A DNA stretch of 64,000 bases, taken from assembly GCA_044892525.1 (NCBI GenBank), contig CM097885.1:3288001-3352000 (forward strand), given 5' to 3'. The notes under the pieces were generated by a model. The model was not told the DNA's origin, did not search any database, and saw nothing but the letters and a program-made list of their open reading frames with translations. Positions 6,001 to 49,147 of this stretch are shown in pieces. The DNA comes from Schmidtea polychroa (lineage: Eukaryota). Position 1 is the stretch's first letter; every line of letters starts with the position of its first letter. The position numbers and the translations under genes were made by a program.

Positions 6001-8585
6001 GGAGATATAGAGATAGGGAGATATAGAGATAGGGAGATATAGAGATAGGGAGATATAGAGATAGGGAGATATAGAGATAGGGAGATATAGAGATATAGAT
6101 ATAGATATAGACAGATAGAGATATAGATATAGAGAGATAGAGATAGGGAGATAGAGATAGGGAGATAGAGATAGGGAGATATAGAGATAGGGAGATATAG
6201 AGATAGGGAGATATAGAGATAGGGAGATATAGAGATAGGGAGATATAGAGATAGGGAGATATAAAGATAGGGAGATATAGAGATAGAGATATAGATATAG
6301 AGATAGGGAGATATAGAGATAGGGAGATATAGAGATAGGGAGATATAGAGAGAGATAGAGATATAGATATAGAGAGATAGGGAGATAGAGATAGGGAGAT
6401 AGAGATATAGAGAGATAGAGATAGGGAGATAGAGATAGGGAGATATAGAGATAGGGAGATATAGAGATAGGGAGATATAGAGATAGGGAGATATAGAGAT
6501 AGGGAGATATAAAGATAGGGAGATATAGAGATAGAGATATAGATATAGAGATAGGGAGATATAGAGATAGGGAGATATAGAGATAGGGAGATATAGAGAG
6601 AGATAGAGATATAGATATAGAGAGATAGGGAGATAGAGATAGAGATATAGATATAGAGAGATAGGGAGATAGAGATAGGGAGATAGAGATAGGGAGATAT
6701 AGAGATAGGGAGATATAGAGATAGGGAGATAGAGATAGAGATATAGATATAGAGATAGGGAGATATAGAGATAGGGAGATATAGAGATAGGGAGATATAG
6801 AGATAGGGAGACATAGAGATAGGGAGATATAGAGATAGAGATATAGATATAGAGATAGGGAGATATAGAGATAGAGATATAGATATAGATATAGAGAGAT
6901 AGAGATAGGGAGATAGAGATAGGGAGATATAGAGATAGGGAGATATAGAGATAGGGAGATATAGAGATAGGGAGATATAGAGATAGGGAGATATAAAGAT
7001 AGGGAGATATAGAGATAGAGATATAGATATAGAGATAGGGAGATATAGAGATAGGGAGATATAGAGAGAGATAGAGATATAGATATAGAGAGATAGGGAG
7101 ATAGAGATAGGGAGATAGAGATAGGGAGAGATAGAGATAGGGAGATAGAGATAGGGAGATATAGAAATAGGGAGATATAGAGATAGGGAGATATAGAGAT
7201 AGGGAGATATAGAGATAGGGAGATATAGAGATAGGGAGATATAGAGATAGGGAGATATAGAGATAGGGAGATATAGAGATAGGGAGATAGAGATAGGGAG
7301 ATATAGAGATAGAGATAGGGAGATAGAGATATAGATATAGAGAGATAGAGATATAGATATAGAGAGATAGAGATAGGGAGATAGAGATAGGGAGATAGAG
7401 ATAGGGAGATATAGAGATAGGGAGATATAGAGATAGGGAGATATAGAGATAGGGAGATATAGAGATAGGGAAATATAGAGATAGGGACATATAGAGATAG
7501 AGATATAGATATAGAGAGATAGAGATAGGGAGATAGCGATAGAGATAGAGATATAGAGATAGGGAGATAGAGATAGGGAGATATAGAGATAGGGAGATAT
7601 AGAGATAGGGAGATATAGAGATAGGGAGATATAGAGATAGGGAGATATAGAGATAGGGACATATAGAGATATAGATATAGAGAGATAGAGATAGGGAGAT
7701 AGCGATAGAGATAGAGATATAGAGATAGGGAGATAGAGATAGGGAGATATAGAGATAGGGAGATATAGAGATAGGGAGATATAGAGATAGGAACATATAG
7801 AGATATAGATATAGAGAGATAGAGATAGGGAGATAGCGATAGAGATAGAGATATAGAGATAGGGAGATAGAGATATAGATATAGAGAGATAGGGAGATAG
7901 AGATAGGGAGATAGAGATAGGGAGATAGAGATAGAGAGATAGAGATAGGGAGATATAGAGATAGGGAGATATAGAGATAGGGAGATATAGATATAGAGAT
8001 AGGGAGATATAGAGATAGAGATATAGATATAGAGAGATAGAGATAGGGAGATAGCGATAGAGATAGAGATATAGAGATAGGGAGATAGAGATAGGGAGAT
8101 ATAGAGATAGGGAGATATAGAGATAGGGAGATAGAGATAGGGAGATAGAGATAGGGAGATATAGATATAGGGAGATATAGAGATAGGGACATATAGAGAT
8201 AGAGATATAGATATAGAGAGATAGAGATAGGGAGATAGCGATAGAGATAGAGATATAGAGATAGGGAGATAGAGATAGGGAGATATAGAGATAGGGAGAT
8301 ATAGAGATAGGGAGATAGAGATAGGGAGATATAGAGATAGGGAGATATAGAGAGAGATAGAGATATAGATATATAGAGATAGGGAGATATAGAGATAGGG
8401 AGATATAGAGATAGGGAGATATAGAGATAGGGAGATAGAGATAGGGAGATATAGAGATAGGGAGATATAGAGATAGGGAGATATAGAGATAGAGATAGAG
8501 ATATAGATATAGAGAGATAGAGATAGGGAGATAGCGATAGAGATAGAGATATAGAGATAGGGAGATATAAATATAGAATAATAGA
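1..8585. repeat. Purine-rich low-complexity satellite (AGATAGGGAGATAT and AGAT/AG/AT variants) filling a CEP290 intron; truncated by the window edge
   Basis: Continuous 12-14 bp modules of AGAT, AGGG, AT and AG with almost no C on the + strand. It ends a few bases from the minus-strand GT donor at 8591-8592. Confidence 0.97.
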
Positions 8586-12452: not shown

Positions 12453-13085
12453 TTATATCAATTATTAATATCAATTATAATATCAATTATAATATCAATG
12501 ATAATATCAATTATAGCATCAATTATAATATCAATGATTATATCAATGATAATATCAATTATAATATCAATTATAATATCAATGATAATATCAATGATTA
12601 TATCAATGATTATATCAATTATAATATCAATTATAATATCAATGATTATATCAATTATAATATCAATGATTATATCAATTATAATATCAATGATAATATC
12701 AATTATAATATCAATTATAATATCAATTATAATATCAATTATAATATCAATGATAATATCAATTATAGCATCAATTATAATATCAATGATTATATCAATG
12801 ATAATATCAATTATAATATCAATGATAATATCAATGATTATATCAATGATTATATCAATTATAATATCAATTATAATATCAATGATTATATCAATTATAA
12901 TATCAATGATTATATCAATTATAATATCAATGATAATATCAATTATAATATCAATTATAATATCAATTATAATATCAATTATAATATCAATGATAATATC
13001 AATGATTATATCAACTATAATATCAATTATAATATCAATTATAATATCAATTATAATATCAATTATAATATCAATTATAGTATAA
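12453..13085. repeat. 12-bp minisatellite, continuation
   Basis: Same unit as 9830-10905. A few more copies reappear at ~30720-30760, beyond the giant element. Confidence 0.97.
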
Positions 13086-13242
13086 AATTATGATTGCTAG
13101 TAGGTAGATAGTGGCCTACGGGAACAATTACCCCCCCCCCGGGGGGGGGGGGGGGGGGTTTGTTCCCAAATTTTTATTACGCAATTGTTCCCAACTCATT
13201 TTTTTGCTTTCAGGAATTTTTGGTCCAAATTTTTTTTTATCA

Positions 13243-14575
13243 CACTATAGTGAGGGGGTCTCGATGGTCCTGGGATTTTCAATGCAAAAAAAATTTTTCT
13301 ATACAAAAACGATGGTCCTGGGATTTTCAATACAAAAAAAATTTTTCTATACAAAAATCCGACTACCACTAAAAAAGCATGGAATTTTCACACTATAGTG
13401 AGGGGGTCTCGATGGTCCTGGGATTTTCAATACAAATAAAATTTTTTCTATACAAAAACGATGGTCCTGGGATTTTCAATACAAATAAAATTTTTTCAAT
13501 ACAAAAAGGCGGTCTCACTAAAAAAGCATGGAATTTTCAGACTATAGTGAGGGGGTCTCGATGGTCCTGGGATTTTCAATACAAAAAAATTTTTCTATAC
13601 AAAAACGATGGTCCTGGGATTTTCAATACAAAAAATTTTTTTCTATACAAAAATCCGACTATCAATAAAAAAGCATGGTAATTTAAGGTCTCAGGATATT
13701 TTCAATACAAAAAGCCGGTCTACACTAAAAAAGCCAAGGATTTTTCAGACTATAGTGAGGTGAGTCTCCTTGGTTCTGAGAAATAGGTGGTCTACACTAA
13801 AAAAAACGTGGTAATTTAAGGTCTCAGGATATTTTCAATACAAAAATCCGACTACCACTAAAAAAGCCAAGGATTTTTCAGACTATAGTGAGGTGAGTCT
13901 TCAATAAAGAAGCATGGTAATTTAAGGTCTCAGGATATTTTCAATACAAAAATCCGACTATCAATAAAAAAGCATAGATTTTTCGAATTAAATTAAGGTG
14001 GGTCTCCTTGGACCTGAGAATTTCAATACAAATAGGTGGTCTTCAATAAAGAAGCATGGTAATTTAAGGTCTCAGGATATTTTCAATACAAAAATCCGAC
14101 TATCAATAAAAAAGCATGGTAATTTAAGGTCTCAGGATATTTTCAATACAAAAAGGCGGTCTTCAATAAAGAAGCACGGTAATTTAAGGTCTCAGGATAT
14201 TTTCAATACAAAAATCCGACTATCAATAAAAAAGCATGGTAATTTAAGGTCTTAGGATATTTTCAATACAAAAAGGTGGTCTTCAATAAAAAAAGCATGG
14301 TAATTTAAGGTCTCAGGATATTTTCAATACAAAAATCCGATTGTCACTAAAAAAGCATGGATTTTTCTAGGTCAATTCAGGTGGGTCTCCTTGGTCCTGA
14401 GAATTTCAATAGAAAAAGGCGGTATTCAATAAAAAAGCATGGTAATTTAAGGTCTCAGGATATTTTCAATACAAATAGGCGGTCTACACTAAAAAAACCA
14501 AGGATTTTTCAGACTATAGTGAGGTGAGTCTCCTTGGACCTGAGAAAAAGGTGGTCTACACTGAAAAACGTGGTA
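13243..14575. repeat. Subterminal ~33-bp and ~60-bp tandem repeats of the left arm (mirrored at ~29765-30462)
   Basis: Repeated units CTATAGTGAGGGGGTCTCGATGGTCCTGGGATTTTCAATACAAAA and AAAGCATGGTAATTTAAGGTCTCAGGATATTTTCAATACAAAA. Confidence 0.9.
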
Positions 14576-15070
14576 AATTTTTCAATTAAAGTAAATTATG
14601 GTTCTAAAAAATTAAATTAAAGTAAATTATGGTTCTAAAAATTTAATTACAGTAAATTATGGCTCAAATTTTTCAATTAAAGTAAATAATGGTTCTAAAA
14701 AATTAAATTACAGTAAATAATGGCTCAAAAATTTAAATTAAAGTAAATTATGGTCCAAATTTTTCAATTAAAGTAAATAATGGTTCTAAAAAATTAAATT
14801 ACAGTAAATGATGGTCCAAATTTTTCAATTAAAGTAAATTATGGTTCAAATTTTTCAAATAAGGTAATTATGGTTCTAAAAAATTAAATTAAAGTAAATT
14901 AAGGTTCTAAAAATTAAATTACAGTAAATAATGGTTCTAAAAAATTAAATTAAAGTAAATTATGGTCCAAATTTTAAAATTAAAGTAAATTATGGTTCTA
15001 AAAAATTAAATTAAAGTAAATTAAGGTTCTTAAAAATTAAATTACAGTAAATAATGGTCCAAATTTTAAA
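14576..15070. repeat. ~30-bp tandem repeat AAATTAAAGTAAATTATGGTTCTAAA (mirrored at ~29290-29765)
   Basis: Directly visible array and its reverse complement. Confidence 0.9.
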
Positions 15071-15499
15071 ATTAAGTAATCAAAGTAAAAAATAAAAATT
15101 AAAGTTAAATAAGTAAATTAAAGTAATAATTTTTTAAATAAGTAAATTAAAGTAATGTAATAAGTAAATTAAAGTAAGATTTTAAAATTTAATTACAAAA
15201 TAATAGAAGGTGTTTGAGAATTGAAATTTTTTAATGAAAATTTTTATGAAATAATTTTTAAGTAATTTTTAATAGAAATTTTAATGAAATATTTTTCAAT
15301 GGTAATTTTTAATGGAAATTTTTATGGAATAATTTTTTAAGTAATTTTTAATGGAAATTTTTATGAAATATTTTTCAATGATAATTTTAGATGGAAATTT
15401 TTATGAAATATTTTTCAATGATAATTTTAGATGGAAATTTTTAAGATAATTTTTAATGAAAATTTTTATGAAATATTTTTCAAAGACAAATTTTAATAA

Positions 15500-16560
15500 T
15501 AATTCAACAACAAACCAACAACTTAGTACCAACAACCAGTAACTTATGAACATGTATTAACAACCAGATACCTACAACTAGTTACTAACAACCAGTTACC
15601 TGATACCAGATACCTACAACTAGTTACCTGATACCAACTACTAACAACCACCTACCCATTAACTAGCTACAACCAGCTAACAACTAGATACCACGTACTA
15701 AATAACTCTCAAACAACCAAGTACTTACAACTAATTACCAGATACCAAGTACTATCAACCAGCTTACAACCTGATACCAACAACTAACAACCAACTACCA
15801 AGTACTTACAACTAGATACTAACAACCAGTTACCTGATACCAAGTACCTACAACTAGATACCACGTACTAAATAACTCTCAAACAACCAAGTACCTACAA
15901 CTAATTACCAGATACCAAGTACTATCAACCAGCTAACAACCTGATACCAACTACTCACAACCAGATAACAACTAACAACCAGATACCAAGTACTTACAAC
16001 TAGTTACTAACAACTAGCTACCAACTACTAAGTACTAACAACCAACATCAACCAGGTACTAAGCATTATCAACCAAGTACTAACAACTAGATACCTAGTT
16101 ACAAACAACCCGCTAACAACTAACAACTAGATACCAAGTACCAGTAAATTACGAACATGTATTAACAACCAGATACCTACAACTAGTTACTAACAACTAG
16201 TTACCTGATAGCAACCAACTAGCTACCAACTACTAAGTACCTACAACCAACATCAACCAGGTACTAAGCATTAATTACCAACTACTAAGTACCTACAACC
16301 AACTAACAACCACCTACCAAGTACTAAGCATTATCAACCAACTACTAAGTACCTACAACCAACTAGCTACCACCTACAACTAGATACTAACAACCAGTTA
16401 CCAACTACTAAGCATTAATTACCTACAACTAGTTACTAACAACTAGCTACCAAGTACATACAACCAGACACTAAGCATTATCAACCAAGTACTAACAACC
16501 AAGTACAAGATACCTAGTACTGTCAACTAGATACCAAACACTTACAACCAGATGACCACA
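15500..16560. repeat. C/A-rich scrambled repeat (ACAACTAGATACCAAGTACT-type modules), mirrored and expanded at ~27245-28935
   Basis: Directly visible; the right-arm copy is the G/T-rich reverse complement and is longer. Confidence 0.9.
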
Positions 16561-16921
16561 TGAAATTATTGGTTAAATATGAAAATAAGGGTTATAATTA
16601 GTTGTTTAGTAAATTATGGTGTAAAATTAAGTAATAAAGCATAAATAGGTAAATTAAGGATAAGTAAATTAAAGTTAAAAAATTAAATTAAAGTTAATTA
16701 AGGTCCAAATTTTAAAAATAAGTAATCAATGTTCTAAAAAATTAAATTAAAGTTAAATAAGTAAATTAAAGTAATAATTTTTAAAGAATTTAATTAAAGT
16801 AATAATTTTTAAATAAGTAATGTAATAAGTAAATTAAAGTAAGATTTTTAATTTTATTATCAAAAGATTGAATAACCACCAACTTTTTTGAGAAATGTAA
16901 TTTATAATGAAAATTTAAATG

Positions 16922-16981
<60 letters not shown>

Positions 16982-17413
16982 TAATAATAATTCAACAGTT
17001 ACCAACAATCGGTTACTGATTATTTTTTAACTAGGTGCTAACAAATACTTACAACTAGATACCACGTACTAACTAACTCTCAAACAACCAGATACTTACA
17101 ACTAACTACTAAATATTCTTCACTGTATTTTATGAAATGCTTTTTAAATTAATATTTTTTATACAGCTTCTATAATAATTTTAATTACAATCAGTAGAAA
17201 AACCTTTTCAAAATGTCTAAATTTAACAAAAATGTTGATTTTCATCAAAAAACCACAACTCAACCACTTTAAAACACCACGTGGAATTCAAAATAATTAC
17301 AATGAAAGACTAATGAATTCTAATTTACAAAACATTCTTCTTTTAAATGATAACTTATTATTGCAAAGTAAAAATCACATTCAATAAATACTTATTATTG
17401 ATCAGTTTTATTA

Positions 17414-20400
17414 TATATACTCTGAGTTTATCCGACAGGATGTTTTGACCCCCTAAGGGTACAGGTCGTAAGGGTATTAGTCGTAAGGGTACTGGTCGTA
17501 AAGGTACTAGTCGTAGGGGTATTGGTAACACTTAACCACAACCTACCCATTAACTAGCTACTAAGTACTAACCACTAGGTTTCAAACAACAACTACTAAC
17601 AACCACCATCAAAACCCATCGAGAAATTAACAAATATCAACCTACAACTATATAACAATCAGTAAACAACACTGTACCAACTACCAAATACAAGATACCA
17701 ACAACTTAGTACCAACAATCAACTAACAACACATAAAAATAATAGCAATTAAATACAAAATATTCTTCATCGCATACACTATTTTCTTATCAAAATCTAA
17801 GAAGTCAATCAGATACCAACTACCAAGTACCAAGTACTAACAACCAACTACCTAGAACCAACAACTATGTACTAACAAATTGATCTTTAAAAGCAAATAC
17901 TCTTCACTTGAAAAATTGGATGAAAAATTATTTGAACTCAAGGCATCAATAACTTGGTAAAAATTGATTAAATAATTGTAAAAATTTAAATTATTCAAAA
18001 TAAATATCATAAAAATTTAATTAATGGACAAGAAAAAATTCTAATCATCCAATAAATAAAAAAAAATGCTGATCATTCAAGTTGAATCAACTAAGATAAT
18101 AAATTAATAAGATAAGATCTAGTAGATAATTGATTAAGATTGAATAAATTAATTTAAATAAAATTAAATTTAATTATTTTTGTAAAAGTAATACATGTAC
18201 TCAAATTGATTGACTGATTTCTCAATATATTCAAAAAAATCAGTATAAATTCATTACAATTATCAAAGTCAGCAATCTACAATAAAAATAATTATCATAA
18301 AATTCCAAAAGAGACTAGATAACTAATGATAACATCTAATAAACCAGTAAATTTATTTAAATGACAATAATTGGTATATCCTAGTGAATTCTCCAATTTC
18401 TCATTTCCTCCCAAATATATCAATATGTAAAGATTAGTATTGTAATGATAAATACTTGTTAAAGATCATATATTCACCTCAAACTAACAAGATTCCTTAA
18501 AATCCCCTTAAATGACTATATTTCTACCCTTAATTCATATTATTACAAATATTTCACTAAAATCATCTAAAAAGCATCAAATTTCCCTGAAATAACTCTA
18601 TCTTTTAAGATTGATATTTTAATGATAAGTACTTGTTAAAGATCATATATTCCCCTCAGACTAATAAGATTGCTCAAACTCCCCTTTAAATGACTATAAT
18701 TCTAACTTTAATTCCTATTATCATACATGTTTCACTATTGATAAAACCGGTTATAATTAACTTTTTGTTAATCACTGTACTCGAAATTTAAAATAAATAT
18801 AACTGACTAGGTCCCATTAAAAGATTAAATTTATCCATTCAATAAAATATATTTCTTCAAATGATCATTTTTACCAATATTCAACCGATTTAATTACTAA
18901 TTAAAATCAAGATTTCTTCCAATAAAGATCAATTTTATTTAGTCGATGTTTTAAGTCCATATTTCTAAACTTTTGTCATTCTCCGCCTAAATAAAGATAA
19001 AAATAAATTAAAGTTGATATCAATCCCAATTATCTGTAAAGATTTCATTGTCAAAACCAAGTAAATCGATCATTATCCCTACTTAATAAAACATTGTTCT
19101 AAATTAATTTACTGTGCATTAATCACAACCTAATAAAACGATATAATTATTATTGATACATAACTGACTAATTGACATTTCCCTTAAAACAATGATATTT
19201 TACCAACATCACCCTTAAAAAATCATATATTCCCATCGAAACCCTTCCCTCATTAAAAGCAACCGACTATATCTCCCTTACAATAATATATTCCCATCTT
19301 AACCCATCTCACATTAAATCTAACCGACTATATCCCCTTAAAAGATCATATTTTCCCCATCTTAACCGATCTCTCATTAAATCTAACCAACAATATCCCA
19401 TCTTAACCGATCTCTCATTAAATCTAACCGACTATATCCCTTTAAAAATCATATATTCCCATCTCTCATTAAATCTAATCGATAATATCCCATCTTATCC
19501 GATCTCTCAGCAAATATTTCTACCCTTTTAAACATCTATCCGATTATATCCCTTAATTTCCCTAAAGATTCCACCCACTTGAACCCTTTAATATATATCA
19601 ATCCTCTTAATATCCTTAGAGAACTTCAAAAAGTATGAATTTTCATAAACTGTTAAAGACACCAGGCATTCTTCCATTGAAATAATTTAGAAGCTAAATA
19701 ATAAGAGCCCACTAAAAGATCAAAATTTACTAAAATTTTCTACAAATATTTACCATCAAATACTGGAGATGATATATATTGATTGATCATAATTCTTCAT
19801 CGATTCAACCAATCATTTTCAAGCAATAACAGCAAACTAAATTTCTGTATATCCTACAATAATTATCAAGTAAATTTAAAGTCATTGATAAATATTCTTA
19901 GAAAATTATTGAAAAAAATTATCTAGTCAAATATATTACAAAGTTATCATCAAAAATTTATTCTATCACTTAATTATTAACCTAATTGTCAATGAAATTA
20001 ATTTTTATTTAAAAACTATTCAATAAAATACAACTAATTATCAAGAAATTAACTAAATTTATCAATTAAATTTATCACCATTAAAACTTTTAATCAGTCA
20101 ACATGAAATTCTTAGAAAATTATTCAATATCCTCATAAAAATTTATCCTACCACTTCATTATTGTAAAATCTCTAATTATTAACCTCATTGAAAATAATT
20201 TTTATTTAAAATTAAAAAAAAAAAAAACAAGTCAATAAAAATACATCCAATTATCAAGAAATTAATTAAATTTATCTTAGAATTAGCATTAAATTATTAA
20301 ATATTCATTCAATAAACATGAAATTTGCAAAAATGTTAGAAATCCATGAAAATGATAGATATCTACAAAAATTACGCATATTCACAAAAAAGTACGGAAA

Positions 20401-20649
20401 TTCATGAAAATAATAGAAAATTACAAAAAATGATAGAAATTCATAAAAATGATAGAAATTTACTTGAATAAAACCATCAACTCTAAAAAATTATCAATAC
20501 CTTAAACAACAAATTTGTCTAAATTCAAATAAAAACATTAAATACCTTTACGACTAATACCCTTGCGACATGTTGAATGTGAGTAGTACCCTTGTGAGCA
20601 ATACCCATGGGGGGACAGAATATTTTGTCGGATAAACTCAGAGTATATA
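17414..20649. mobile_element. Nested ~3.2-kb non-coding TIR element, left-arm copy
   Basis: Ends TATATACTCTGAGTTTATCCGACA ... TGTCGGATAAACTCAGAGTATATA, with subterminal 15-bp repeats (GTCGTAAGGGTACTA) inverted at both ends. Confidence 0.7.
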
Positions 20650-22815
20650 TTAATTAACTCATTTATCATTGAATTAGTCAAATTATCGCAAATTTCGATA
20701 AAAAATCTAAAGTGGTAAGCAATGTAAAGAGAAATATTCTTTAAATTTTGATAAAATTAGCAATGAAGGTGGTAAGAATCTTCATTGAAGTGAGGAAATT
20801 ACTCGATGATAAATTCAAATGGGTGAAAATAATTGGTAGAATAATCCATTAATGGAGGTAGATAATGAGAAGTGGCATAGATAAGAAGAAGGTGGATAAG
20901 AATGGAAGTATATTAATTGAATTTATTTAAAATTATTTCATAAAATTCATAAATTTAATAAAAAAAAACAAATATTTGTGGGGATGTTTTAAGTGAATAA
21001 TTAATAAAAATCGGCGGAATATAATTGATTAAATATCAGGTTAATGGAAATTCGAGGGGATATAAGTGAATAATTAATGGAGAATCGGGGGGAATATAGG
21101 AGATTAAATAGTGGGATAATGGAAAATCGGTGGAAAATATAGGGATTAAATAGTGGAGAATATAAGTGAGGAGGATAGATAATTTAAACTATTTTATTAC
21201 ATAACAAGCCGCGACTAGTTTATTACATAACAAGCCGTGACTAGTTTATTACATAACAAGCTGTGAATGGTATTTTACCAACATTTTACTAAATTTTTAA
21301 AGTATGTAATTTAATTTTAATTATATTTTAAAATTGTATATATTTTGAATATCATTCTATTGTTTAATTTCAATAATAAGTTTAAAAAATCTATAATAAT
21401 TAATAAATTAATATCTTGTTAACATTTATTTGAGAATTTAAAAAACTTTACTTAAAATTAGTGAAGTATTAAATTTTAATTGTATTTTATAAGACATATA
21501 TTTGAGTATTAACTTATTTTGATTGAAGTATCACATTTAATATTGTGATGATTGTTTTCTAAATCGAAATATTTAGTGTAAAATAGTAAATTTAATAATC
21601 AATAGAATACAATATTAAAGGACTTTTTAAAAAGAAAAATTACTTTCTATTACCTAATTCCATCATTAAGTTTAAAAAGTCTATAACTGTTAATAATTCA
21701 ATTTCTTATTCACATTTTCTAATAAAACTTATATTTTTAAATTTAGTGTAAAGAATTTAATTTTAATTGTATTTTATAAGTCATTTATTTGAATATTTAT
21801 CTTATTTTTATTGAAAGGAGTAATATAATTCATATTATGATATTCGTTTCGAAATATTTAGTGTAGAATCGTAAATTTAATAGTATATAGCTATTATTGC
21901 AAGTACTTATACAACAAAAACTTTTTTATTTCTAATGTTTTATTCCATAAATAAGTTTTAAAGTATATAACTGGTAATAAATTAATTTCTTATTTAAATT
22001 TATTTAAAAAAGCTTTACTTATAAAATTTATATTTTCGAAGACTTATATTTGAATATTAACTTATATTGATTGAAAAGGGTAATTGATTTAGAAATTATT
22101 TAGTGTAAATAAAAACATTTAAATTATTAAGGTATTAAAGTACCTATTCAAAAATTAAAAAAAAAAAAGACCTAATAAATAATTTTCAATAAAATACTAT
22201 TCACAGCTTGTTATGTAATAAACTAGTCACGGCTTGTTATGTAATAAACTAGTCGTGGCTTGTTATGTAATAAAATAGTTTAAATTACATATCCTTCTCA
22301 CTTATATTCCACCGATTCTCATTATCCCACTATTTAATCTCCTATATTCCCCCCGATTCTCCATTAATTATTCACTTATATCCCCTTTATTTTCCACTAA
22401 TTATTCACTTATAACCCCCACCCCCCGATATTTAATCAATTATATTCCGCCGATTTTTATTAATTATTCACTTAAAACATCCCCACAAATATTTGTTTTT
22501 TTTTTATTAAATTTATGAATTTTATGAAATAATTTTAAATAAATTCAATTAATATACTTCCATTCTTATCCACCTTCTTCTTATCTATGCCACTTCTCAT
22601 TATCTACCTCCATTAATGGATTATTCTACCAATTATTTTCACCCATTTGAATTTATCATCGAGTAATTTCCTCACTTCAATGAAGATTCTTACCACCTTC
22701 ATTGCTAATTTTATCAAAATTTAAAGAATATTTCTCTTTACATTGCTTACCACTTTAGATTTTTTATCGAAATTTGCGATAATTTGACTAATTCAATGAT
22801 AAATGAGTTAATTAA

Positions 22816-25800
22816 TATATACTCTGAGTTTATCCGACAAAATATTCTGTCCCCCCATGGGTATTGCTCACAAGGGTACTACTCACATTCAACATGTCGC
22901 AAGGGTATTAGTCGTAAAGGTATTTAATGTTTTTATTTGAATTTAGACAAATTTGTTGTTTAAGGTATTGATAATTTTTTAGAGTTGATGGTTTTATTCA
23001 AGTAAATTTCTATCATTTTTATGAATTTCTATCATTTTTTGTAATTTTCTATTATTTTCATGAATTTCCGTACTTTTTTGTGAATATGCGTAATTTTTGT
23101 AGATATCTATCATTTTCATGGATTTCTAACATTTTTGCAAATTTCATGTTTATTGAATGAATATTTAATAATTTAATGCTAATTCTAAGATAAATTTAAT
23201 TAATTTCTTGATAATTGGATGTATTTTTATTGACTTGTTTTTTTTTTTTTAATTTTAAATAAAAATTATTTTCAATGAGGTTAATAATTAGAGATTTTAC
23301 AATAATGAAGTGGTAGGATAAATTTTTATGAGGATATTGAATAATTTTCTAAGAATTTCATGTTGACTGATTAAAAGTTTTAATGGTGATAAATTTAATT
23401 GATAAATTTAGTTAATTTCTTGATAATTAGTTGTATTTTATTGAATAGTTTTTAAATAAAAATTAATTTCATTGACAATTAGGTTAATAATTAAGTGATA
23501 GAATAAATTTTTGATGATAACTTTGTAATATATTTGACTAGATAATTTTTTTCAATAATTTTCTAAGAATATTTATCAATGACTTTAAATTTACTTGATA
23601 ATTATTGTAGGATATACAGAAATTTAGTTTGCTGTTATTGCTTGAAAATGATTGGTTGAATCGATGAAGAATTATGATCAATCAATATATATCATCTCCA
23701 GTATTTGATGGTAAATATTTGTAGAAAATTTTAGTAAATTTTGATCTTTTAGTGGGCTCTTATTATTTAGCTTCTAAATTATTTCAATGGAAGAATGCCT
23801 GGTGTCTTTAACAGTTTATGAAAATTCATACTTTTTGAAGTTCTCTAAGGATATTAAGAGGATTGATATATATTAAAGGGTTCAAGTGGGTGGAATCTTT
23901 AGGGAAATTAAGGGATATAATCGGATAGATGTTTAAAAGGGTAGAAATATTTGCTGAGAGATCGGATAAGATGGGATATTATCGATTAGATTTAATGAGA
24001 GATGGGAATATATGATTTTTAAAGGGATATAGTCGGTTAGATTTAATGAGAGATCGGTTAAGATGGGATATTGTTGGTTAGATTTAATGAGAGATCGGTT
24101 AAGATGGGGAAAATATGATCTTTTAAGGGGATATAGTCGGTTAGATTTAATGTGAGATGGGTTAAGATGGGAATATATTATTGTAAGGGAGATATAGTCG
24201 GTTGCTTTTAATGAGGGAAGGGTTTCGATGGGAATATATGATTTTTTAAGGGTGATGTTGGTAAAATATCATTGTTTTAAGGGAAATGTCAATTAGTCAG
24301 TTATGTATCAATAATAATTATATCGTTTTATTAGGTTGTGATTAATGCACAGTAAATTAATTTAGAACAATGTTTTATTAAGTAGGGATAATGATCGATT
24401 TACTTGGTTTTGACGATGAAAACTTTACAGATAATTGGGATTGATATCAACTTTAATTTATTTTTATCTTTATTTAGACGGACAACGACAAAAGTTTAGA
24501 AATATGGACTTAAAACATCGACTAAATAAAATTGATCTTTATTGGAAGAAATCTTGATTTTAATTAGTAATTAAATCGGTTGAATATCGGTAAAAATGAT
24601 CATTTGAAGAAATATATTTTATTGAATGGATAAATTTAATCTTTTAATGGGACCTAGTCAGTTATATTTATTTTATATTTCGAGTACAGTGATTAACAAA
24701 AATTTTATTATAACCGGTTTTGTCATTAGATTTTATAAATTCTTTAGGGTTAATGATTTTACATGTTTTATAAGGAAATATTCGTGATAATAGGAATTAA
24801 AGTCATTTAAAGGGGATTTTAAGCAATTTTATTAGTCTGAGGTAAATATATAACCTTTTAAGGATATTTATCGATAAAATACTAATCTTTAAAGATAGTT
24901 ATTTCAGGGAAATTTGATGCTTTTTAGATGATTTTAATGAATTATTTGTAATAATATGAATTAAGGGTTGAAATATAGTCATTTAAGGGATTTTAAGGAA
25001 TCTTATTAGTTTGAGGAGAATATATGATCTTTAACAAGTATTTATCATTAAAATACCAATCTTTAAATATTGATATATTTAGGGGGAAAATGATGCTTTT
25101 TAGATGATTTTATTGGAGAATTCACTTGGATATACCAATTATTGTCATTTGAATGAATTTACTGGTTTGTTAGATGTTATCATTAGTTATCTAGTCTCTT
25201 TTGGAATTTAATGATAATTATTTTTATTGTAGATTGCTGACTTTAATAAGTTTAATGAATTCATACAGATTTTTTGAATATATTGAGAAATCAGTCAATC
25301 AATTTGAGTACATGTATTACTTTTAAAAAAAAAATACTTAAAATTAATTTTATTTCAATTAATTTATTCAATCTAAATCAATTATCTACTAGATCTTATT
25401 TCAAAATTCTTATTAATTTACTATCTTAGTTGATTCATATTAACTTGAATGATCAATGACTAGAATTTAAAGTTCTTTCTTGTCCATTAATTACATTTTT
25501 ATGACATTTATTTTGAAAATTTTAAATTTTTACAATTATTTAATCAATTTTTACCAAGTTATTGATGTCTTGAGTTCAATTAATTTTTCATCCAATATTT
25601 GTAATGAATTTATACTGATTTTTTGAATATATTGAGAAATCAGTCAATCAATTTGAGTACATGTATTACTTTTACAAAAAAATGATTAAAATTAATTTTA
25701 TTTCAATTAATTTATTCAATCTAAATAAATTATCTACTAGATCTTATCTTATTAATTTATTATCTTAGTTGATTCAACTTGAATGATCAGTATTTTTTTT

Positions 25801-26386
25801 TATTTACTGGATGATTAGAATTCTTTCTTGTCCATTAATTAAATTTTTATGATATTTATTTTGAATAATTTAAATTTTTACAATAATTTAATCAATTTTT
25901 ACCTAGTTATTGATACCTTGAGTTCAAATATCTTAAAAGTGCCTTGAGTTCAATTAATTTTTCATCTAATTTTTTCAAGTGATGAGTATTTGCTTTTAAA
26001 GATCAATTTGTTAGTACATAGTTGTTGGTTGTAAGTAGTTGGTTGACTTTTTAGATTTTGATAAGAAAATAGTGTATGCGATGAAGAATAATTTTTTTTA
26101 TTTAATTGCTATTATTTTTATGTGTTGTTAGTTGATTGTTGGTACTAAGTTGTTGGTTTCTTGTATTTTGTAGTTGGTACAGTGTTGTTAATTTCTCGAT
26201 GGGTTTTAATGGTGGTTGTTAGTACATGGTATCTAGTTGTTAGCTGATTGATAGTAACTACTTAATGAGTAGGTGGGGATTGAGAGTGATCAATACCTTT
26301 ACGACCAGTACCCTTACGACTAGTACCCTTACGACCTGTACCCTTAGGGGGTCAAAACATCCTGTCGGATAAACTCAGAGTATATA
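22816..26386. mobile_element. Nested TIR element, right-arm mirror copy (~3.6 kb)
   Basis: Same TIRs in mirrored order; longer because of a ~350-bp internal tandem duplication near 25255-25925. Confidence 0.7.
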
Positions 26387-26802
26387 TAATAAAACTGATC
26401 AACAATAAGTATTTATTGAATGCGATTTTTACATTGCAATAATAAGTTATCAATTAAAAGAAGAATGTTTTGTTAATTAGAATTCATTAGTCTTTCATTG
26501 TAATTTAAATTATTTTGAATTTCACGTGGTGATGAGTTGTGGTTTTTTGATGAAAATCAACATTTTTGTAAAATTTGAAAAGGTTTTTCTAATGATTGTA
26601 ATTAAATATATTTTTGTAGATAGATAAAAAATTAATTTAAAAAGCATTTCATAAAATACAGTGAAGAATATTTAGTAGTTAGTTGTAAGTATCTGGTTGT
26701 TTGAGAGTTAGTTAGTACGTGGTATCATGTTGTAAGTATTTGTCAGTACCTAGTTAAAAAATAATCAGTAACCGATTGTTGGTAACTGTTGAATTATTAG
26801 TA

Positions 26803-26898
<96 letters not shown>

Positions 26899-29800
26899 CA
26901 TTTAAATTTCCATTTAAATTTTCATTATAAATTACATTTCTCAAAAAAGTTGGTGGTTATTCAATCTTTTGTTAATAAATTTAAAAATCTTAGTTTAATT
27001 TACTTATTACATTACTTATTTAAAAATTATTACTTTAATTTACTCATTTAGCTTTAATTTAAAATTTAAACCATTGTTTCCTTTAATTTAAAATTTTGAA
27101 CCTTAATTTACTTATTTAAAATTTTTAACTTTAATTTACTTATCCTTATTTTGCCTATTTATCCTTTATTACTTAATTTTACACCATAATTTACTAAACA
27201 ACTAATTATAACCCTTATTTTCATATTTAACCAATAATTTCATGTGGTCATCTGGTTGTAAGTGTTTGGTATCTAGTTGACAGTGCTTAGTACTTGGTAA
27301 GTTACTTGGTTGTTAGTACTTGGTTGATAATACTTAGTACCTGGTTGATGTTGGTTGTATGTACTTGGTAGGTGGTAGTTAGTTGTTAGTACTTAGTAGC
27401 TAGTTAATGGGTAGGTGGTTGTTGGTACTTGGTAGGTGTTAGCTAGTTGGTTGTAGGTACTTAGTAGCAGGTAACTGGTTGTTAGTAACTAGTTGTAGGT
27501 ATCTGGTTGTTGGCGGTTGTTAGTACTTGGTATCTGGTACCTAGTTGGTTGCTATCAGGTAACTAGTTGTTAGTAACTAGTTGTAGGTATCTGGTTGTTA
27601 GTAACTAGTTGTAAGTACTTGGTATCAGGTAACTGGTTGGTTGTTAGTACTTAGTATTTAGTTGGTTGATAATGCTTAGTAACTGGTTGTTGACGGTTGA
27701 GTGCTTGGTAGGTGGTAGCTAGTTGGTTGATTGTTTTTGGTTGTTAGTACTTGGTAGTTGGTTGTAGGTACTTGGTATCTGGTACCTAGTTGGTTGGTGA
27801 TTTTTGGTTGATAGTACTTGGTATCTAGTTGTAAGTATTTGGTATCAGGTAACTGGTTGTTAGTATGTAGGTTGTAGGTACTTAGTAGTTGGTAATTAAT
27901 GCTTAGTACCTGGTTGTTGTTGGTTGTTAGTACTTGGTAGTTAGTTATTAGTACTTGGTACCTAGTTGGTTGCATGTTTTTGGTTGTTGGTACTAGTTAT
28001 CAGCTAACTGGTTGTAGGTATCTGGTTGGTAATACATGTTCGTAAGTTACTGGTTGTTGGTAACTAGTTGTAGGTTGATAAGGCTTAGTACCTGGTTGTT
28101 GACGGTTGTTAGTACGTGGTATCTAGTTGTAAGTACTTGGTAACTAGTTAATGGGTAGGTGGGGGTTGAGAGTTAGTTAGTACGTGGTATCTAGTTGTAA
28201 GTACTTGGTAGCAGGTAATTGGTTGTTAGTAACTAGTTGTAAGTACTTGGTAGCAGGTAATTGGTTGTTAGTAACTAGTTGTAAGTACTTGGTAGGTTGT
28301 AGCTAGTTGTTAGTAATTGGTACCTAGTTGGTTGCTTGTTTTTGGTTGTTAGTACTTGTTAGGTGGTTGTAGGTACTTGGTAGGTACTTAGTAGTTGGTA
28401 ATTAATTGGTAGGTGGTTGTATGTACTTGTTAGTTAGTTGTAAGTACTTGGTAGCAGGTTATTGGTTGTTAGTAACTAGTTGTAAGTACTTGGTAGGTTG
28501 TAGCTAGTTGTTAGTACTTGGTACCTAGTTGGTTGCTTGTTTTTGGTTGTTAGTACTTGTTAGGTGGTTGTAGGTACTTGGTAGGTACTTAGTAGTTGGT
28601 AATTAATTGGTAGGTGGTTGTATGTACTTGGTAGTTAGTTGTAAGTACTTGGTACCTAGTTGGTTGGTTGTTTTGTTGTATGTACTTGGTATCAGGTAAC
28701 TAGTTGTAGGTATCTGGTTGGTAATACATGTTCGTAAGTTACTGGTTGTTGGTACTTAGTAGGTGGTTAATAATGCTTAGTACCTGGTTGTTGTTGGTTG
28801 TATGTACTTGGTAGTTAGTTGTTAGTATTTGGTACCTAGTTGGTTGCATGTTTTTGGTTGTTGGTACTTGGTATCAGGTTGGTAATACATGTTCGTAAGT
28901 TACTGGTTGTTGGTACTAAGTTGTTGATTTGTTGTTGAATTATTATTAAAATTTGTCTTTGAAAAATATTTCATAAAAATTTTCAATAAAAATTATCTTA
29001 AAAATTTCCATCTAAAATTATCATTGAAAAATATTTCTTAAAAATGTCCATTAAAAATTAACTTAAAAAATTATTCCATAAAAATTTCCATAAAAAATTA
29101 CCATTGACAAATATTTCATAAAAATTTTCATTAAAAAATTTCAATTCTCAAACACCTTCATCTTTTTGTTAATAAATTTTAAAATCTTACTTTAATTTAC
29201 TTATTACATTACTTAATTTAAAAATTATTACTTTAATTTACTTATTTAACTTTAATTTAAAATTTTTGACCATTGATTACTTAATTTTAAAATTTGGACC
29301 TTAATTAACTTTAATTTAATTATTTAGAACCTTAATTTAGTTATTTGAGCCCATTCATTACTTTAATTTAAAAATTTGAACCATAATTTACTGTAATTCA
29401 AAAATTTGGACCTTAATTTACTTTAATTTAATTTTTTAGAACCATAATTTACTGTAATTGAAAAATTTGGACCAATACTTACTGTAATTTAATTTTTAAG
29501 AACCATTATTTACTTTAATTTAATTTTTTTAGACCCATAATTTACTTTAATTAAAAAATTTGAGTCATAATTTACTTTAATTGAAAATTTTTTACCATTA
29601 TTTACTGTAATTAAATTTTTTAGAACCATTATTTACTTTAATTGAAAAATTTTGACCATTATTTACTTTAATTGAAAAATTTGAACCATAATTTACTTTA
29701 ATTTTTAGAACCATTATTTACTGTAATTTAATTTTTTAGAACCATTATTTACTTTAATTGAAAAATTTACCACGTTTTTAGTGTAGACCACCTATTTCTC

Positions 29801-30757
29801 AGGACCAAGGAGACTCACCTCACTATAGTGTGATAAATCCTTGGCTTTTTTATTGATAGTAGGATTTTTGTATAGAAAAAAATTTTTTGTATTGAAAATC
29901 CCAGGACCATCGAGACCCCCTCACTATAGTGTGAAAATTCCATGCTTTTTTATTGAGACCGCCTTTTTGTATTGAAAAAATTTTATTTTTATTGAAAATC
30001 CCAGGACCATCGTTTTTGTATTGAAAAATTTTTTTTTGTATTGAAAATCCCAGGACCATCGTTTTTGTATTGAAATTTTTTTTTTGTATTGAAAATCCCA
30101 GGACCATCGAGACCCCCTCACTATAGTCTGAAAATTCTATGCTTTTTTTAGTGGTAGTCGGATTTTTGTATAGAAAAATTTTTTTTGTATTGAAAATCCC
30201 AGGACCATCGTTTTTGTATAGAAAAAAATTTTTTGTATTGAAAATCCCAGGACCATCGAGACCCCCTCACTATAGTCTGAAAATTCTATGCTTTTTAGTG
30301 GTAGTCGGATTTTTGTATAGAAAAAATTTTATTTGTATTGAAAATCCCAGGACCATCGAGACCCCCTCACTATAGTGTGAATAATCCTTGACTTTTTTAT
30401 TGATAGTCGGATTTTTGTATAGAAATTCCCAGGACCATCAAGACCCTCTCACTATAGTGTGATAAAAAAAAATTTGGACCAAAAATCCCTGAAAGCAAAA
30501 AAATGAGTTGGGAACAATTGCGTAATAAAAATTTGGGAACAAACCCCCCCCCCCCCCGGGGGGGGGGGGGGGGTAATTGTTCCCGTAGGCCACTATCTAC
30601 CTACTATTGCTTGGTAGCAGCGTTTATTATTTAAAACAATAAAATGATAATTTAAGCCTTTTGCTGCAAATAATGTATTTAATGAAAATAATTACGACTA
30701 TAGGATAGCCCTTGTTAATCCAATATCAATTATAATATCAATTATAATATCAATGAT

Positions 30758-30820
<63 letters not shown>

Positions 30821-31076
30821 TCAATAATAAAGATAAATCAATAGCAATATCAATAATCAATAACGTAAATATTATCGATATTTTAATAATATCAATATAA
30901 TCCATAATAATAATATCAATAATATAAATTAAATCAATAACAATATCAATATAACCGATAATCAATAATAATAAATATATAATGATAATATCGATCGCAA
31001 TATGATTTGTATCAAATTCATGAAAATCAATAATATCAATAAAATTGTATCATATCCATAAATCGATATTACTCAC

Positions 31077-33816
31077 CTCCTTCTGCAGAACAATATTAAT
31101 CGCCCTCTCCTCCTCGTCCTCGGCTGCCTTCTGCCTCCTGTAGCCCTCTATATCAAGATTTTCATCGCTTGGGATATTCAGCTTGGTCCGAAGATGTCCG
31201 TTCTCGAATTTCAGCTCCTCAACGGCGTAATTGGCCTTGTTGACATTCTGTAGATATTGTTCCTTCTCCCGTTCCTTCACTTGCAACTGAGCCTTGCACG
31301 CCTTAATCTCAGCAACTGCTTCTGCAAGGCCGAATTCTCCTCTCTCGTACATTTTGTTCCTCTCAAGGGCATCTGTCAGCTCCTGCTCCCGATCCGCCAT
31401 CTGATTCTCCACCTGATCCAATCAATACCCATTCAATCGATCAACAGACAGTTATCCATCCACCTTATTCAGTCTCTCCACAGTTTCCTTTAGCATCTTC
31501 TCCTTATCGTCCAGCATCTGCCGCAATTCCTTTATTCGCCTCATTTGATGTCCCGATGATCCTCCTCCAGTTCGTTCTAAATCCTTCTTCAAATTCTCTA
31601 TGAGATCTCCGTTCTCCTCGATCGTGTGGGCCGCGTCCAGCAATTGATGAGTCAAATCCTTGACCTACATGAAATAGTTCTTGTCACATCGCTTCCATCA
31701 CAGCCAATTACAATCCACCTCTTGTTCCCGCTCCTTCACTAGCTTTATCAGTGCTTGAACATTTGCCTTCTCGCTGTTGATGCCAGATTTCTGTAGGTCG
31801 TATCGTAATTTGGCATTCTCCTCGTACAGCCGACAGATCTCAGAATCTCTTTCTTCCATTATCTGTAAATTGTATTAGAGCCCAGTGAGAAATCGATTGA
31901 AATTGATTAAAGGAATAAAGGAAGAAAGAAATAAGAATAAGAGAAAGAGTAACGGAAAAAGAATAAAATAAAGATGTAATAGACAAGCAGATAAGAAAAA
32001 AGCAAGAGAAAAAATGAGTAAAAGAGAAAAATAATAAAAGAAAGATATAATAGACAAGTAGAAAAAAAAAGCAAGTTATAAAAAGAAAAAAAGAAAAAGA
32101 GAAAAAATAAAAAAATAAAAGATATAATAGACAACCAGAAAAGAGAGCAATATAGTAAGAAGGAAAAGCTGAAAAGAAAAGTGGAAGATTAAAGAAAAAG
32201 AAAAGGAAGTAAAATAGAAAAAGAGAAAAAAGAAAAGATGTAATTGACAAGCAGAAAAGAGAGCAATATACAAAAAAAGAAGGAAAAGCTGAAAAGAAAA
32301 GTGGAAGAGTAAAGAAAAAAAAGGAGTAAAAGAGAAAAAGATTAAAAGAAAGAGGTAATAAACAAGCAGAAAAGAAAAAATAGTAAATTATAAAAAGAAA
32401 AAAAAGAGAAAAAAATAAAAAATAAAAGGAGTAAAAAAGAAAAAATAAAAGGAGTAAAAAAGAAAAAATAAAAGATATAATAAACAAGCAGAAAAAAAAG
32501 CAATTTAGAAAAGAAAGAAAGCTGAAAAGAAAAGTGGAAGAGTAAAGAAAAAGAAGTGAAAGAGAAAAAGATTAAGAGGTAATAGACAAGCAGAAAAATA
32601 AAAATAGCAAATTATAAAAAGAAAAAAAGAGAAAAAATAAAAGGAGTAAAAAAAATAAAAGATATAATAAACAAGCAGAAAAGGGAGCAATATAAAAAAG
32701 AAGGAAAGCTGAAAAGAAAAAGAAAAATGAGTAGAAGAGAACAAGAGTAAAAGAAATATGTAATAGACAAGCAGGAAAGAATGCAATAGAAAAAAAAAGA
32801 AGGAAAACTGAAAAGAAAGTGAAAGAGTAAAAAATGAAAAAGGAGTAAAAGAGAAAAAGGATAAAGAATGAATAGTTAAATAAAATTAGAGAAAAACAAG
32901 GTAAATCAGAGGAAAAATAAAACAAGAAAGAAATTCATAATCTAGAATAAATAAATAAATAAATAATAAACAAACTTGTTTCCATTTCTCGACTTGTTCG
33001 TTGACATGAATCATAATTTTGTCATCGGCATCATTCCTGTCATTCATCTGTTCCTGCAAATGTTCAATCTGCATCCTCAGCATCCTGCATTCCGCCTCCC
33101 TGCTCTGAAGATCTCCATCAGTCATCCCGAAATTGCTCTTCATATTCTTATATTCCGATGTTATTCTTTCGATTTCATCGGTTGCCATTTCCAGGTTTTC
33201 CTTCAAATGATCCATTTCCTGATGCAGTTCAAGGATTTTCTCTTGGGCATTCTGATAAGATTTAGGAATTAAATCATTTTAGTGACGAGATTCGACTTAC
33301 ATCGAGATCAATCTTCTTCTGTCTTAATTCTGATCTAGTATAAGCCAACTCGGATTTATTGGAATCCTGATTTTGATCTTTTTGATTTTTAAGTTGATTC
33401 GTTCTCTGTCGAAGAAATTCCACGTTGTCAGAAAATTTTGCATTAGAGTCTTTCAATCCTTCAATTTCCTTTTGCTGTTTATTAATTGTTTCTTCTTTCT
33501 TATCATTTTCCTCAGTCAACGAATTATATTTGCTTTTCAACTCCCGAATTTCTTGGTTCATAGATTCTTTTTCCATTTCCCAGTTTCGTCTCTCTCGAAC
33601 GACATTTATATCTGCCCCGTCACTTCTTTGCAACGCTGCGTTCTCTTTTTCTAATTCTTCCTTGATAATTTTCAATTTTTTTATATCTACATTTGCTTCT
33701 TCCAAATCTTCATCAAGTCCTTTGTTTTCCTCAGCTTTATAACTCATGATAAATTGTGCAATGTTGAAAGCCTTGTGAAGCTTATCAACATCATCGACAT
33801 CGGTGATGTCATTGAT
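31077..33816 (-). CDS. CEP290: CEP290 exons 2-6 (33301-33816, 32976-33251, 31719-31862, 31464-31664, 31077-31412)
   Basis: Coiled-coil translations include DDKIMIHVNEQVEKWK, YERGEFGLAEAVAEIKACK and RAINIVLQKE, matching recalled CEP290 DDPIMVAVNAKVEEWK, YESGVYGLEDAVVEIKNCK and RAENQILLKE. All exon lengths are multiples of 3 with GT-AG borders. Confidence 0.93.
31900..32930. repeat. A/G-rich degenerate tandem repeat in CEP290 intron 3
   Basis: Recurrent TAGACAAGCAGAAAAG and GGAAAGCTGAAAAGAAAAGTGGAAGA motifs among A-runs; source of spurious Phe-rich ORFs. Confidence 0.85.
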
Positions 33817-34689
33817 CTGAAAGTTATTTTTTATTCATTTGAGAACCCATAAAAACATGAAATTCATTTTTATGGACAGTGTGAGAGAAGATTTGGTCAA
33901 GGACCAAGTGTGCCAGTCAAATAGAAGATTAGCGTGAAAATAATTCAAAACACACACAAAATCCTTCGAAAAGTAAAAAAGATATTCAAGATAGTCATTT
34001 ATTTCCGTCAATTATTATAACACTTACAAGAAATATGAGAGCATCAGAATATCTTAATGCAGGTTTTTTTGGGATGGAAAAATCAAACAAAATCAACCTA
34101 GATTGATTACTACATTCGTACAAAATGAATAAAAAATGCTATAATACTGATTGGTGTGTGAGTTTTTGTTATTTTAGCATTTGACATTTCAGAAATGGCT
34201 TGTAAGTAGGTAAAAAAGTAAATTTTAAGGTTTGAATTTTTATTTTATATAGATATGAGATAATTATTCGAGCTCTTAAATATTACTTTGATTCAACATT
34301 TATATTATAACTTATTTCTAATCACATTTTTCAGCACTTTCAAGGAATTTATGTATTATATTTTTGATTTAATTTGATTTAATGTAAATTAGATCAATAT
34401 TAAATTATAAATTATTAACAAAAAATTAATCAGCAAAGATTTCTATTTATTTAAATATATATAAGGGAAATAAACAGCGAATATAATAATATACTAACAA
34501 TTTTATTCCATCGACTATTTCTAAGTATCAAAAGATTACATGCATTTTTTAATATATATGTTGTGCTTGTGTGTTAAATTTATTTTTCTACCACTTTCAC
34601 AATTTCTATATAGAAAGATGCAACAATAAATTTTTACACACAGATAAGTTTCTGTGATTCAAAAATATCGTATTCAATAATATAGCGTA

Positions 34690-48701: not shown

Positions 48702-49147
48702 GGCTCGATATACTGTGAAAGTTACCAGACAAAATGGACAAGCCAAATCTTTAGTCTGGCGCTGTAAGAAAACGACTCGACCTTGCCAGACCATGTCGAG
48801 AAGCTTCATCAGCAGATAGGACTCCTAGCGAAATCGCAGACCGAAGATAAGAATAACATTCGCAACTTAAAAATGACAATACGAGAACAAGCTGTGAGGA
48901 TAATGGATCTCCGAGCCGGACTCCACATAGATGCAAGAGGTGGAAGAGTATTCATTTATTTTATTATTTTTAAAATCTTTACTAATTTCAGTTATTAAAA
49001 TTAAAATTAAAATTAATATTAAAATTAAAATATTTGAAAACTTTGTTAAATAAGATTTAACTATTTAAAATTAAAGTTAAATTAAATTTTTTTATTTTTA
49101 AATTTGTTTAAATATTAATTGTATGAAAACTAATTAATTATTTCATC

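Follow-up and report, generated by a model that had tools for sequence, protein, structure and literature searches.

Vertebrate Mavericks (Polintons), as reported by Barreat and Katzourakis (2021, PMC8097293), have target-site duplications (TSDs) of 6 bp, termini of the (AGT)2//(ACT)2 type, terminal inverted repeats (TIRs) of 46-1,447 bp and a unit of about 17 kb, encoding a protein-primed DNA polymerase B (pPolB), an integrase, an ATPase, a protease and a double-jelly-roll (DJR) capsid protein. Mavericks/Polintons encode capsids, and according to that report particles have not been observed. Expansions of Mavericks have been reported in planarian genomes, and one report describes Polintons as repressed by PIWI-interacting RNAs (piRNAs) in a planarian (PMC8532177). 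We analysed a stretch of 64,000 nucleotides from Schmidtea polychroa (assembly GCA_044892525.1, contig CM097885.1, positions 3,288,001 to 3,352,000), hereafter the window. It contains a palindromic element that is very probably a gene-less and non-autonomous member of a young family of Mavericks/Polintons, mobilised by gene-bearing copies with the same ends. Like the vertebrate Mavericks this element has a 6-bp TSD and related termini, but it is gene-less and consists for about 95% of inverted repeats. The gene-bearing copies, the putative helper, encode the five proteins listed above in a unit of about 17 kb and differ from the vertebrate elements by TIRs of 1.3-2.1 kb that consist of tandem repeats, and by TBP-like and RING-finger genes.

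Classical foldback elements (Drosophila FB and its relatives) consist of long inverted arms of tandem subrepeats around a loop, and are mostly non-coding and abundant. P and FB elements make TSDs of 7-9 bp, and FB/MuDR-type machinery one of 9 bp. The window element resembles the foldback elements in its subrepeat-built inverted arms, its loop, its lack of genes and its abundance; superfamily and TSD length are different, and its ends are those of a pPolB-encoding element. Also similar in form are the inverted dimers of undersized helper-dependent adenovirus vectors and copy-back defective genomes, described as gene-less, dependent on a helper and furnished with terminal cis elements, in which non-coding filler and inverted duplication bring the molecule to about unit genome length (PMC4189039). 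Those vectors are laboratory constructs of a non-integrating virus, whereas here we deal with a germline-integrated family of hundreds of copies. Butterfly Polintons (bioRxiv 10.1101/2025.02.07.637071) are reported to have enlarged TIRs of about 2 kb that duplicate the hexon and adenain genes, comparable to the gene-bearing arms of about 6 kb in a 16.4-kb copy described below; they are still gene-bearing, and the TIRs are a minor part of their length. No description of gene-less palindromic Maverick derivatives was found in the full-text literature, Repbase and subscription journals lying outside the scope of that search.

A sequence-only reading of the window had delimited the element at 13099-30605, with inverted termini AGTAGG...CCTACT between two perfect copies of ATTGCT, and all of this matched the sequence exactly (Table 1). 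Its estimates of arms of about 8.2 and 8.4 kb and a spacer of about 0.9 kb became 8,179, 8,416 and 912 bp when the spacer was bounded by the innermost inverted pair. The self-comparison that it had proposed, done as an inverted-repeat search and a self-BLAST, showed the arms to be mirrored end to end, and the 132 array rows reported by Tandem Repeats Finder were mirrored between the arms as well. The inner parts of the arms (18735-20968 and 22497-24729) are 99% complementary, with 97.5% identity over 2,554 aligned nt of the inner arms and 98.8-100% per 500-nt window; in the outer parts complementarity is 72-95%, and indels occur in the tandem repeats. The spacer itself is not palindromic, and compared with the spacers of other copies it shows 91-98% identity in one orientation and 73-78% in the opposite one.

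The reading had also stated that the element has no real open reading frame (ORF). All ORFs of at least 80 aa in the element (standard code, stop to stop) were low-complexity or tandem-repeat translations, a Pfam scan of nine of them gave no family above the cut-off, and scans of the element for Rfam families, hidden RNA genes and tRNAs gave no match. The element therefore lacks the pPolB and integrase of its own that an autonomous Maverick carries. The terminal 82 nt (13099-13180), which include a hairpin formed by a C-run with a G-run, had a predicted DNA fold of -25.6 kcal/mol (z -4.4), matched by none of 200 shuffled sequences; the same hairpin with other run lengths was found in a copy at C1:2254895.

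Ten terminus pairs were taken from the first contig. Six contained no ORF of at least 200 aa and aligned to the window element across nearly the full length; the remaining four (L031, L039, L047 and L049) had large ORFs, among them pPolB and integrase, which answered the proposal of the sequence-only reading to search with the terminus for autonomous copies. Both kinds of copies have an identical 33-nt terminus, and the first ~200 nt of the window element are 94-95% identical to those of the two gene-bearing copies compared. The TIRs of the gene-bearing copies, which are 95-99.8% identical to one another in their longest alignments, contain the same tandem arrays as the ends of the window element. 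With these copies the window element shares only its positions 1-2406 on the left side, 15840-17507 on the right and a piece of about 200 bp, so that its Maverick-derived portion is limited to the outer ~2.4 kb (left) and ~1.7 kb (right). About 5.8 kb of each arm is low-complexity DNA unrelated to Mavericks. A sensitive blastn of the arm interior and the spacer against the four gene-bearing interiors returned a single match of 69 nt at 77% identity, and tblastx returned none. Descent of the arm interior from Maverick genes was considered and rejected on these comparisons.

The gene content of the putative helper was drawn from the four gene-bearing copies and one terminus pair of 26.7 kb. pPolB was recognised in a 392-aa core (PF03175, 3.1e-33) of a 1,433-aa ORF in copy L031; a Pfam scan of the complete 1,433-aa ORF, unlike that of the core, gave no family, which we attribute to filtering. 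All 91 scored genome matches to pPolB were near 1e-30, and several lie inside exact terminus pairs (e.g. C1:1839425, 202631533 and 143541474). An rve integrase (PF00665, 1.3e-8) is followed in an adjacent ORF by weaker rve_3 and Chromo matches, a chromodomain-like tail. In the single copy that was scanned the integrase gene was thus split over two neighbouring ORFs, and a 207-aa ORF matching its second part is present in all four other gene-bearing copies; the gene could possibly contain a short intron. A Pox_A32-type ATPase (PF04665, 6.6e-7) and an adenain-like protease (Peptidase_C5, PF00770, 1.4e-5) were both above cut-off. The AlphaFold2 model of a 408-aa ORF (pLDDT 88.5, pTM 0.86) retrieved with Foldseek PBCV-1 Vp54 and the major capsid proteins of iridovirus, Sputnik and mavirus (E 7e-16 to 7e-13), and the nearest Atlas clusters of this protein carry PF21738 (DJR-like_dom) on 14-30% of their members; judged by this predicted structure, the protein is the DJR major capsid protein. 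Further ORFs encode a TBP-domain protein (PF00352, 5e-16), a protein with an Adeno_PX-like (adenovirus mu/pX-like) motif (PF05829, 2.7e-6) and, in some gene-bearing copies, a RING-finger protein. No Pfam family was found for the paralogous ORFs of 344, 338 and 312 aa.

The full gene set by which Mavericks are recognised (pPolB, rve integrase, DJR capsid, ATPase and protease) is accordingly present in copies that have the terminus and the 6-bp TSDs of the window element. This upholds its assignment to Polintons/Mavericks by the sequence-only reading, and its description there as a non-autonomous derivative agrees with the lack of genes and with an arm interior that has neither nucleotide nor translated similarity to the gene-bearing interior. 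As a separate observation, relatives of the capsid protein with 51-60% identity (P0017, P0019, P0028, P0037, P0040 and others) were found on metagenome and Logan contigs. The longest of these contigs measure 15-28 kb, near the size of a whole Maverick, and may be complete related elements or free genomes.

Copy number was estimated with sequence markers, counted with up to two mismatches on both strands of the 781-Mb assembly, which is AT-rich and has four chromosome-scale contigs; reversed-sequence controls all gave 0. The 33-nt terminus occurred 323 times forward and 343 times reverse (666; reversed control 0+0), mostly as +/- pairs 16-18 kb apart, and opening the pattern at three variable positions gave 617 + 642 occurrences (1,259). 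An inner-arm marker, present in 7 of 7 gene-less and in 0 of 4 gene-bearing copies, was found 984 + 995 times (1,979), mostly as +/- pairs about 3.1-3.9 kb apart. A spacer marker gave 279 + 229 (508) and a capsid-gene marker 114 + 112 (226) occurrences. Roughly, these counts imply 500-1,000 palindromic cores, about 200 copies of the capsid gene and some 630 pairs of recognisable ends; by extrapolation from them the gene-less family may account for about 1-2% of the assembly. A core that lacked an exact terminus was inspected and turned out to be an element of 15.4 kb, with a terminus variant (2-3 mismatches) and the TSD ACCGAA. At C1:31791033 the capsid marker and a pPolB match follow a terminus of the variant type, so at least one gene-bearing copy has this type of end.

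A perfect 6-bp TSD was present in 10 of the 12 copies with both ends, and every TSD sequence was different. Flanks were distinct for 29 of 30 termini, with no evident target motif. Together with the hundreds of copies at different sites, this bears out the expectation of the sequence-only reading that the element represents a family and not a local accident. The combination of a 6-bp TSD with 5'-AG...CT-3' ends is that of Mavericks, and the window termini AGTAGG//CCTACT agree with the vertebrate (AGT)2//(ACT)2 motif at 5 of 6 positions per end. Identical flanks at one terminus were seen on two contigs (L014 on C22 and L015 on C7), probably a haplotig or a duplicated segment.

The two arms of the window element are unequal, and their origin was investigated by global alignments of 12 arms. 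All seven gene-less copies examined are palindromic. In L033 the arms are 99.99% identical (7,921 nt with one mismatch and one gap), in L043 they differ by 17 mismatches in 7,563 nt, and in L045 they are about 93% identical throughout; arms of different copies are 92-97% identical in aligned columns. The left arm of the window element and that of L035, which lies 5.9 Mb away, are 99.4% identical overall, and between 1501 and 6000 each 500-nt window gives 100.0% identity. The right arm of the window element matches its left arm at 98.8-100% only over the inner ~2.4 kb. Past a breakpoint at about 24.6-24.7 kb, some 6 kb from the right terminus, right/left identity is 84-96% with many gaps, and the outer right arm does not closely resemble any of the other 11 arms. 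Because the left arm is identical to that of L035 over 4.5 kb and the right arm matches it over the inner ~2.4 kb only, the alignments identify the asymmetry as that of a chimera of two lineages, and not as decay in place. In all four copies with unequal arms (the window element, L035, L037 and L041) the loop-proximal inner part is the most similar, a pattern that would be expected from single crossovers or template switches in one arm of perfect palindromes. The sequence-only reading had proposed that the element moved as an already diverged palindrome. The part of this proposal that excludes decay in place is sustained by the L035 match and the lineage switch; as to the movement itself, the intact TSD leaves two routes, integration of a ready-made hetero-palindrome or later conversion from another copy. 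The family has been active recently.

The element has termini, subterminal repeats and a TSD in common with gene-bearing copies in the same genome, and it has no coding capacity; we consider it very likely, therefore, that it belongs to a young Maverick/Polinton family as a non-autonomous, gene-less member which the gene-bearing copies mobilise. Such an element would keep only the cis-acting ends, i.e. the 33-nt terminus, the C/G-run hairpin and ~2 kb of tandem-repeat TIR, and between them ~5.8 kb of mirrored low-complexity filler and a loop of 0.9 kb. Helper proteins would copy and insert it in trans: synthesis by the protein-primed pPolB would begin from the termini, whereas insertion of the AG...CT ends into the target, at positions staggered by 6 bp, would be the task of the rve integrase. 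The simplest account of the palindrome itself would be a copy-back or strand switch, in which replication from a single Maverick end ran into adjacent non-Maverick DNA and then copied back, creating the second end. A displaced single strand could fold into an 8-kb hairpin, resembling the 'racket' intermediate of the model that Kapitonov and Jurka reportedly put forward for Polintons in 2006. Repair inside this hairpin could hold the arms identical within a lineage, and template switches between co-replicating variants may give rise to chimeric elements with unequal arms.

Other rearrangements in the family are of a similar kind. The 26.7-kb terminus pair consists of a partial tandem duplication and a 16.4-kb element, whose inverted arms of about 6 kb duplicate the ATPase, the integrase and three further ORFs; none of the ORFs in this element exceeds 408 aa, and a polymerase ORF is hence lacking. 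Five head-to-head pPolB pairs were present among the 91 scored matches, 1.6-10 kb apart and with equal or nearly equal scores and frame lengths. Protein-primed elements would, on this evidence, repeatedly yield palindromic, copy-back-like genomes that are heritable and can be amplified. By the marker counts, gene-less parasites of a parasite here outnumber their helper several-fold.

Several results weigh against mobilisation by the helper and the copy-back scheme. No clean TSD is present in two of the 12 copies (L033 and L045): the repeat of L033 is shifted by 3 nt, and the right flank of L045 is the same as that of the neighbouring copy L043. These last two gene-less copies (L043/L044 and L045/L046; C1:29.62 and 30.05 Mb, 430 kb apart) have a 99.9% identical arm and a common right flank with different left flanks, which points to ectopic recombination or a segmental duplication ending inside the element, and not to integration. 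One of the head-to-head pPolB pairs, at C1:235.38 Mb, was predicted to be a unit-length palindrome with normal termini, and this prediction failed; two stretches of 1.3 kb at the predicted ends showed no similarity to a gene-bearing copy and no terminus motif. Finally, the marker counts for arm (1,979), spacer (508) and terminus (at most 1,259) do not reconcile, so that in many cores the ends or spacers must have diverged or been lost.

Long inverted arms of tandem subrepeats without genes are what classical foldback elements look like, and the element could in principle be a foldback transposon of another superfamily (FB/MuDR-like or P/Galileo-like) that is Maverick-like at its tips only. The likeness to Mavericks goes well beyond the tips, however: homology with the TIRs of pPolB-bearing copies extends over about 2.4 kb at the left end and 1.7 kb at the right, the 33-nt terminus is the same, and the TSD has 6 bp in 10 of 12 copies instead of 7-9 bp. 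The ends and the TSD are thus not those of FB/MuDR-type elements, and we consider this origin very improbable. Even less credence is given to two other possibilities. Long-read libraries are known to fail at palindromes of this size, and the structure might be an artefact of assembly or of foldback reads; but hundreds of sites, differing in their flanks and TSDs, have this architecture, the inner-arm marker (984 + 995) lies mostly in +/- pairs ~3.1-3.9 kb apart, and the structure is kept across copies of different sequence variants. An autonomous Maverick whose genes have eroded past recognition would explain why length and ends are the same as in the gene-bearing copies. Against such decay stand the lone 69-nt blastn match and the empty tblastx search, and since the left arm is 100% identical to that of L035 over 4.5 kb, the element is young and not eroded.

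A different question is whether the element does more than be mobilised, either co-opted by the host as a source of hairpin RNA or piRNA, or acting as an interfering genome that competes for helper proteins and damps the spread of the Maverick. Numbers would allow this, with ~990 cores (1,979 arm markers, two per element) against 226 capsid-gene markers; if transcribed, the element would form a perfect hairpin of 8 kb, and Polintons are reported as targets of piRNAs in a planarian (PMC8532177). However, the arms share just TIR sequence with the helper and none of its genes, and a plain parasite of a parasite would equally reach a high copy number. We regard such a role as unlikely.

Whether Mavericks/Polintons move as viruses or as transposons is open in the field, and a gene-less family offers a natural test, as a gene-free element can conserve only what replication, integration and packaging demand, yet this one retains the length and the ends of its helper. 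Forty adjacent +/- pairs of exact termini, listed for the first contig, were tallied by hand and classed by marker positions. The 15 gene-less pairs measured 15.85-18.07 kb (mean 17.04 kb) and the 10 gene-bearing pairs 16.59-18.12 kb (mean 17.50 kb); 4 unclassified pairs of unit length measured 16.87-17.72 kb, 5 were shorter (1.4-14.7 kb) and 6 longer (21-37 kb). In all, 29 of the 40 fell within 15.85-18.12 kb. Pairs of the variant terminus (n=14) were more scattered, with 6 at 15.2-18.0 kb, 6 at 8-14.8 kb and 2 above 30 kb.

The match of 17.04 to 17.50 kb, seen among young copies, is striking and hints at a constraint by capsid size. Mavericks are reported to have 'a constrained genome size' with a mean of 16,862 +/- 1,678 bp (PMC8097293). 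For helper-dependent adenovirus, it is reported that a 15-kb vector was packaged as direct and inverted dimers, and that vector genomes below 75% or above 105% of the wild-type length rearrange towards that length (PMC4189039). By analogy, the gene-less palindrome may be a capsid-sized satellite genome, of the defective-interfering type, of an endogenous Maverick virus; filler and inverted doubling would then raise a one-ended replicon of half the length to the ~17 kb needed by the helper capsid. Much of the uniformity could however be due to descent, because the young copies have a recent common ancestor, and the broader lengths in the older, variant-terminus subfamily weigh against a packaging limit. 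For these two reasons we hold the satellite explanation only tentatively, as possible but rather doubtful. If it were true, the length conserved in hundreds of copies without genes would be the first footprint in a genome of an animal Maverick spreading via size-selective virions, and Maverick viruses would have parasites of their own; selection on length would by itself indicate a size-selective capsid.

Table 1. Features of the palindromic element and of helper ORFs. Positions refer to the window unless a copy is named; a slash marks the boundary of the element.
Feature	Position	Strand	Remarks
Whole gene-less palindromic element	13099..30605	no strand	17,507 bp
Left target-site duplication	13093..13098		ATTGCT
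Right target-site duplication	30606..30611		ATTGCT
Left junction, short form			...ATTGCT/AGTAGGTAGATAGTGG
Right junction, short form			CCACTATCTACCTACT/ATTGCT...
Left junction, longer form			...ATGATTGCT/AGTAGGTAGATAGTGGCCTACGGG
Right junction, longer form			...CCCGTAGGCCACTATCTACCTACT/ATTGCTTGG
Predicted empty site (pre-insertion)			...AAATTATG-ATTGCT-TGGTAGCAG...
33-nt terminus, 5'-AGTAGG...	13099..13131	+	same in gene-less and gene-bearing copies
Subterminal C-run/G-run hairpin	13120..13167	+	GGGAACAA..Cn Gn..TTGTTCCC; mirror at 30537-30584
Left outer arm	13099..15504	+	homologous to Maverick tandem-repeat TIR; arrays of 149-, 120- and 30-bp units
Left arm interior	15505..21277	+	low-complexity DNA; no Maverick similarity save a TIR-like piece of ~200 bp at ~16662-16872
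Inner left arm	18735..21277	+	near-identical mirror of 22190-24729
Asymmetric spacer	21278..22189		912 bp; 285-bp unit x 2.1
Inner right arm	22190..24729	-	lineage shared with left arm
Outer right arm, interior	24730..28937	-	a different family lineage; chimera breakpoint at ~24.6-24.7 kb
Right outer arm	28938..30605	-	homologous to Maverick TIR; holds terminus ...CCTACT
TBP-domain ORF	L052:3579-4091	-	
mu/pX-like ORF	L052:4868-5251	+	
RING-finger ORF	L047:7455-8600	+	

In the surroundings of the element, the window contains an older Maverick remnant (47193-48458), in which a piece of 187 bp matches the polymerase gene region of the gene-bearing copies at about 90% identity and a piece of about 390 bp matches their TIR repeats at 76-78%. 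The palindromic element is flanked by host coding exons at 31050-33834 (- strand) and 49127-50815 (+ strand); exons of a coiled-coil protein start 445 bp from its right end, and farther on a 563-aa ORF shows, by eye only, a HIGH-type motif of class I aminoacyl-tRNA synthetases. On the left side, a 12-bp microsatellite (ATATCAATTATA, ~52 copies, 12455-13083) stops 15 bp from the insertion site. The first ~8 kb of the window (1-8000) are a satellite with units like AGATAGGGAGATATAGAG, which has only purines on the + strand, a GC skew of 1.00 and a GC content of about 35%.

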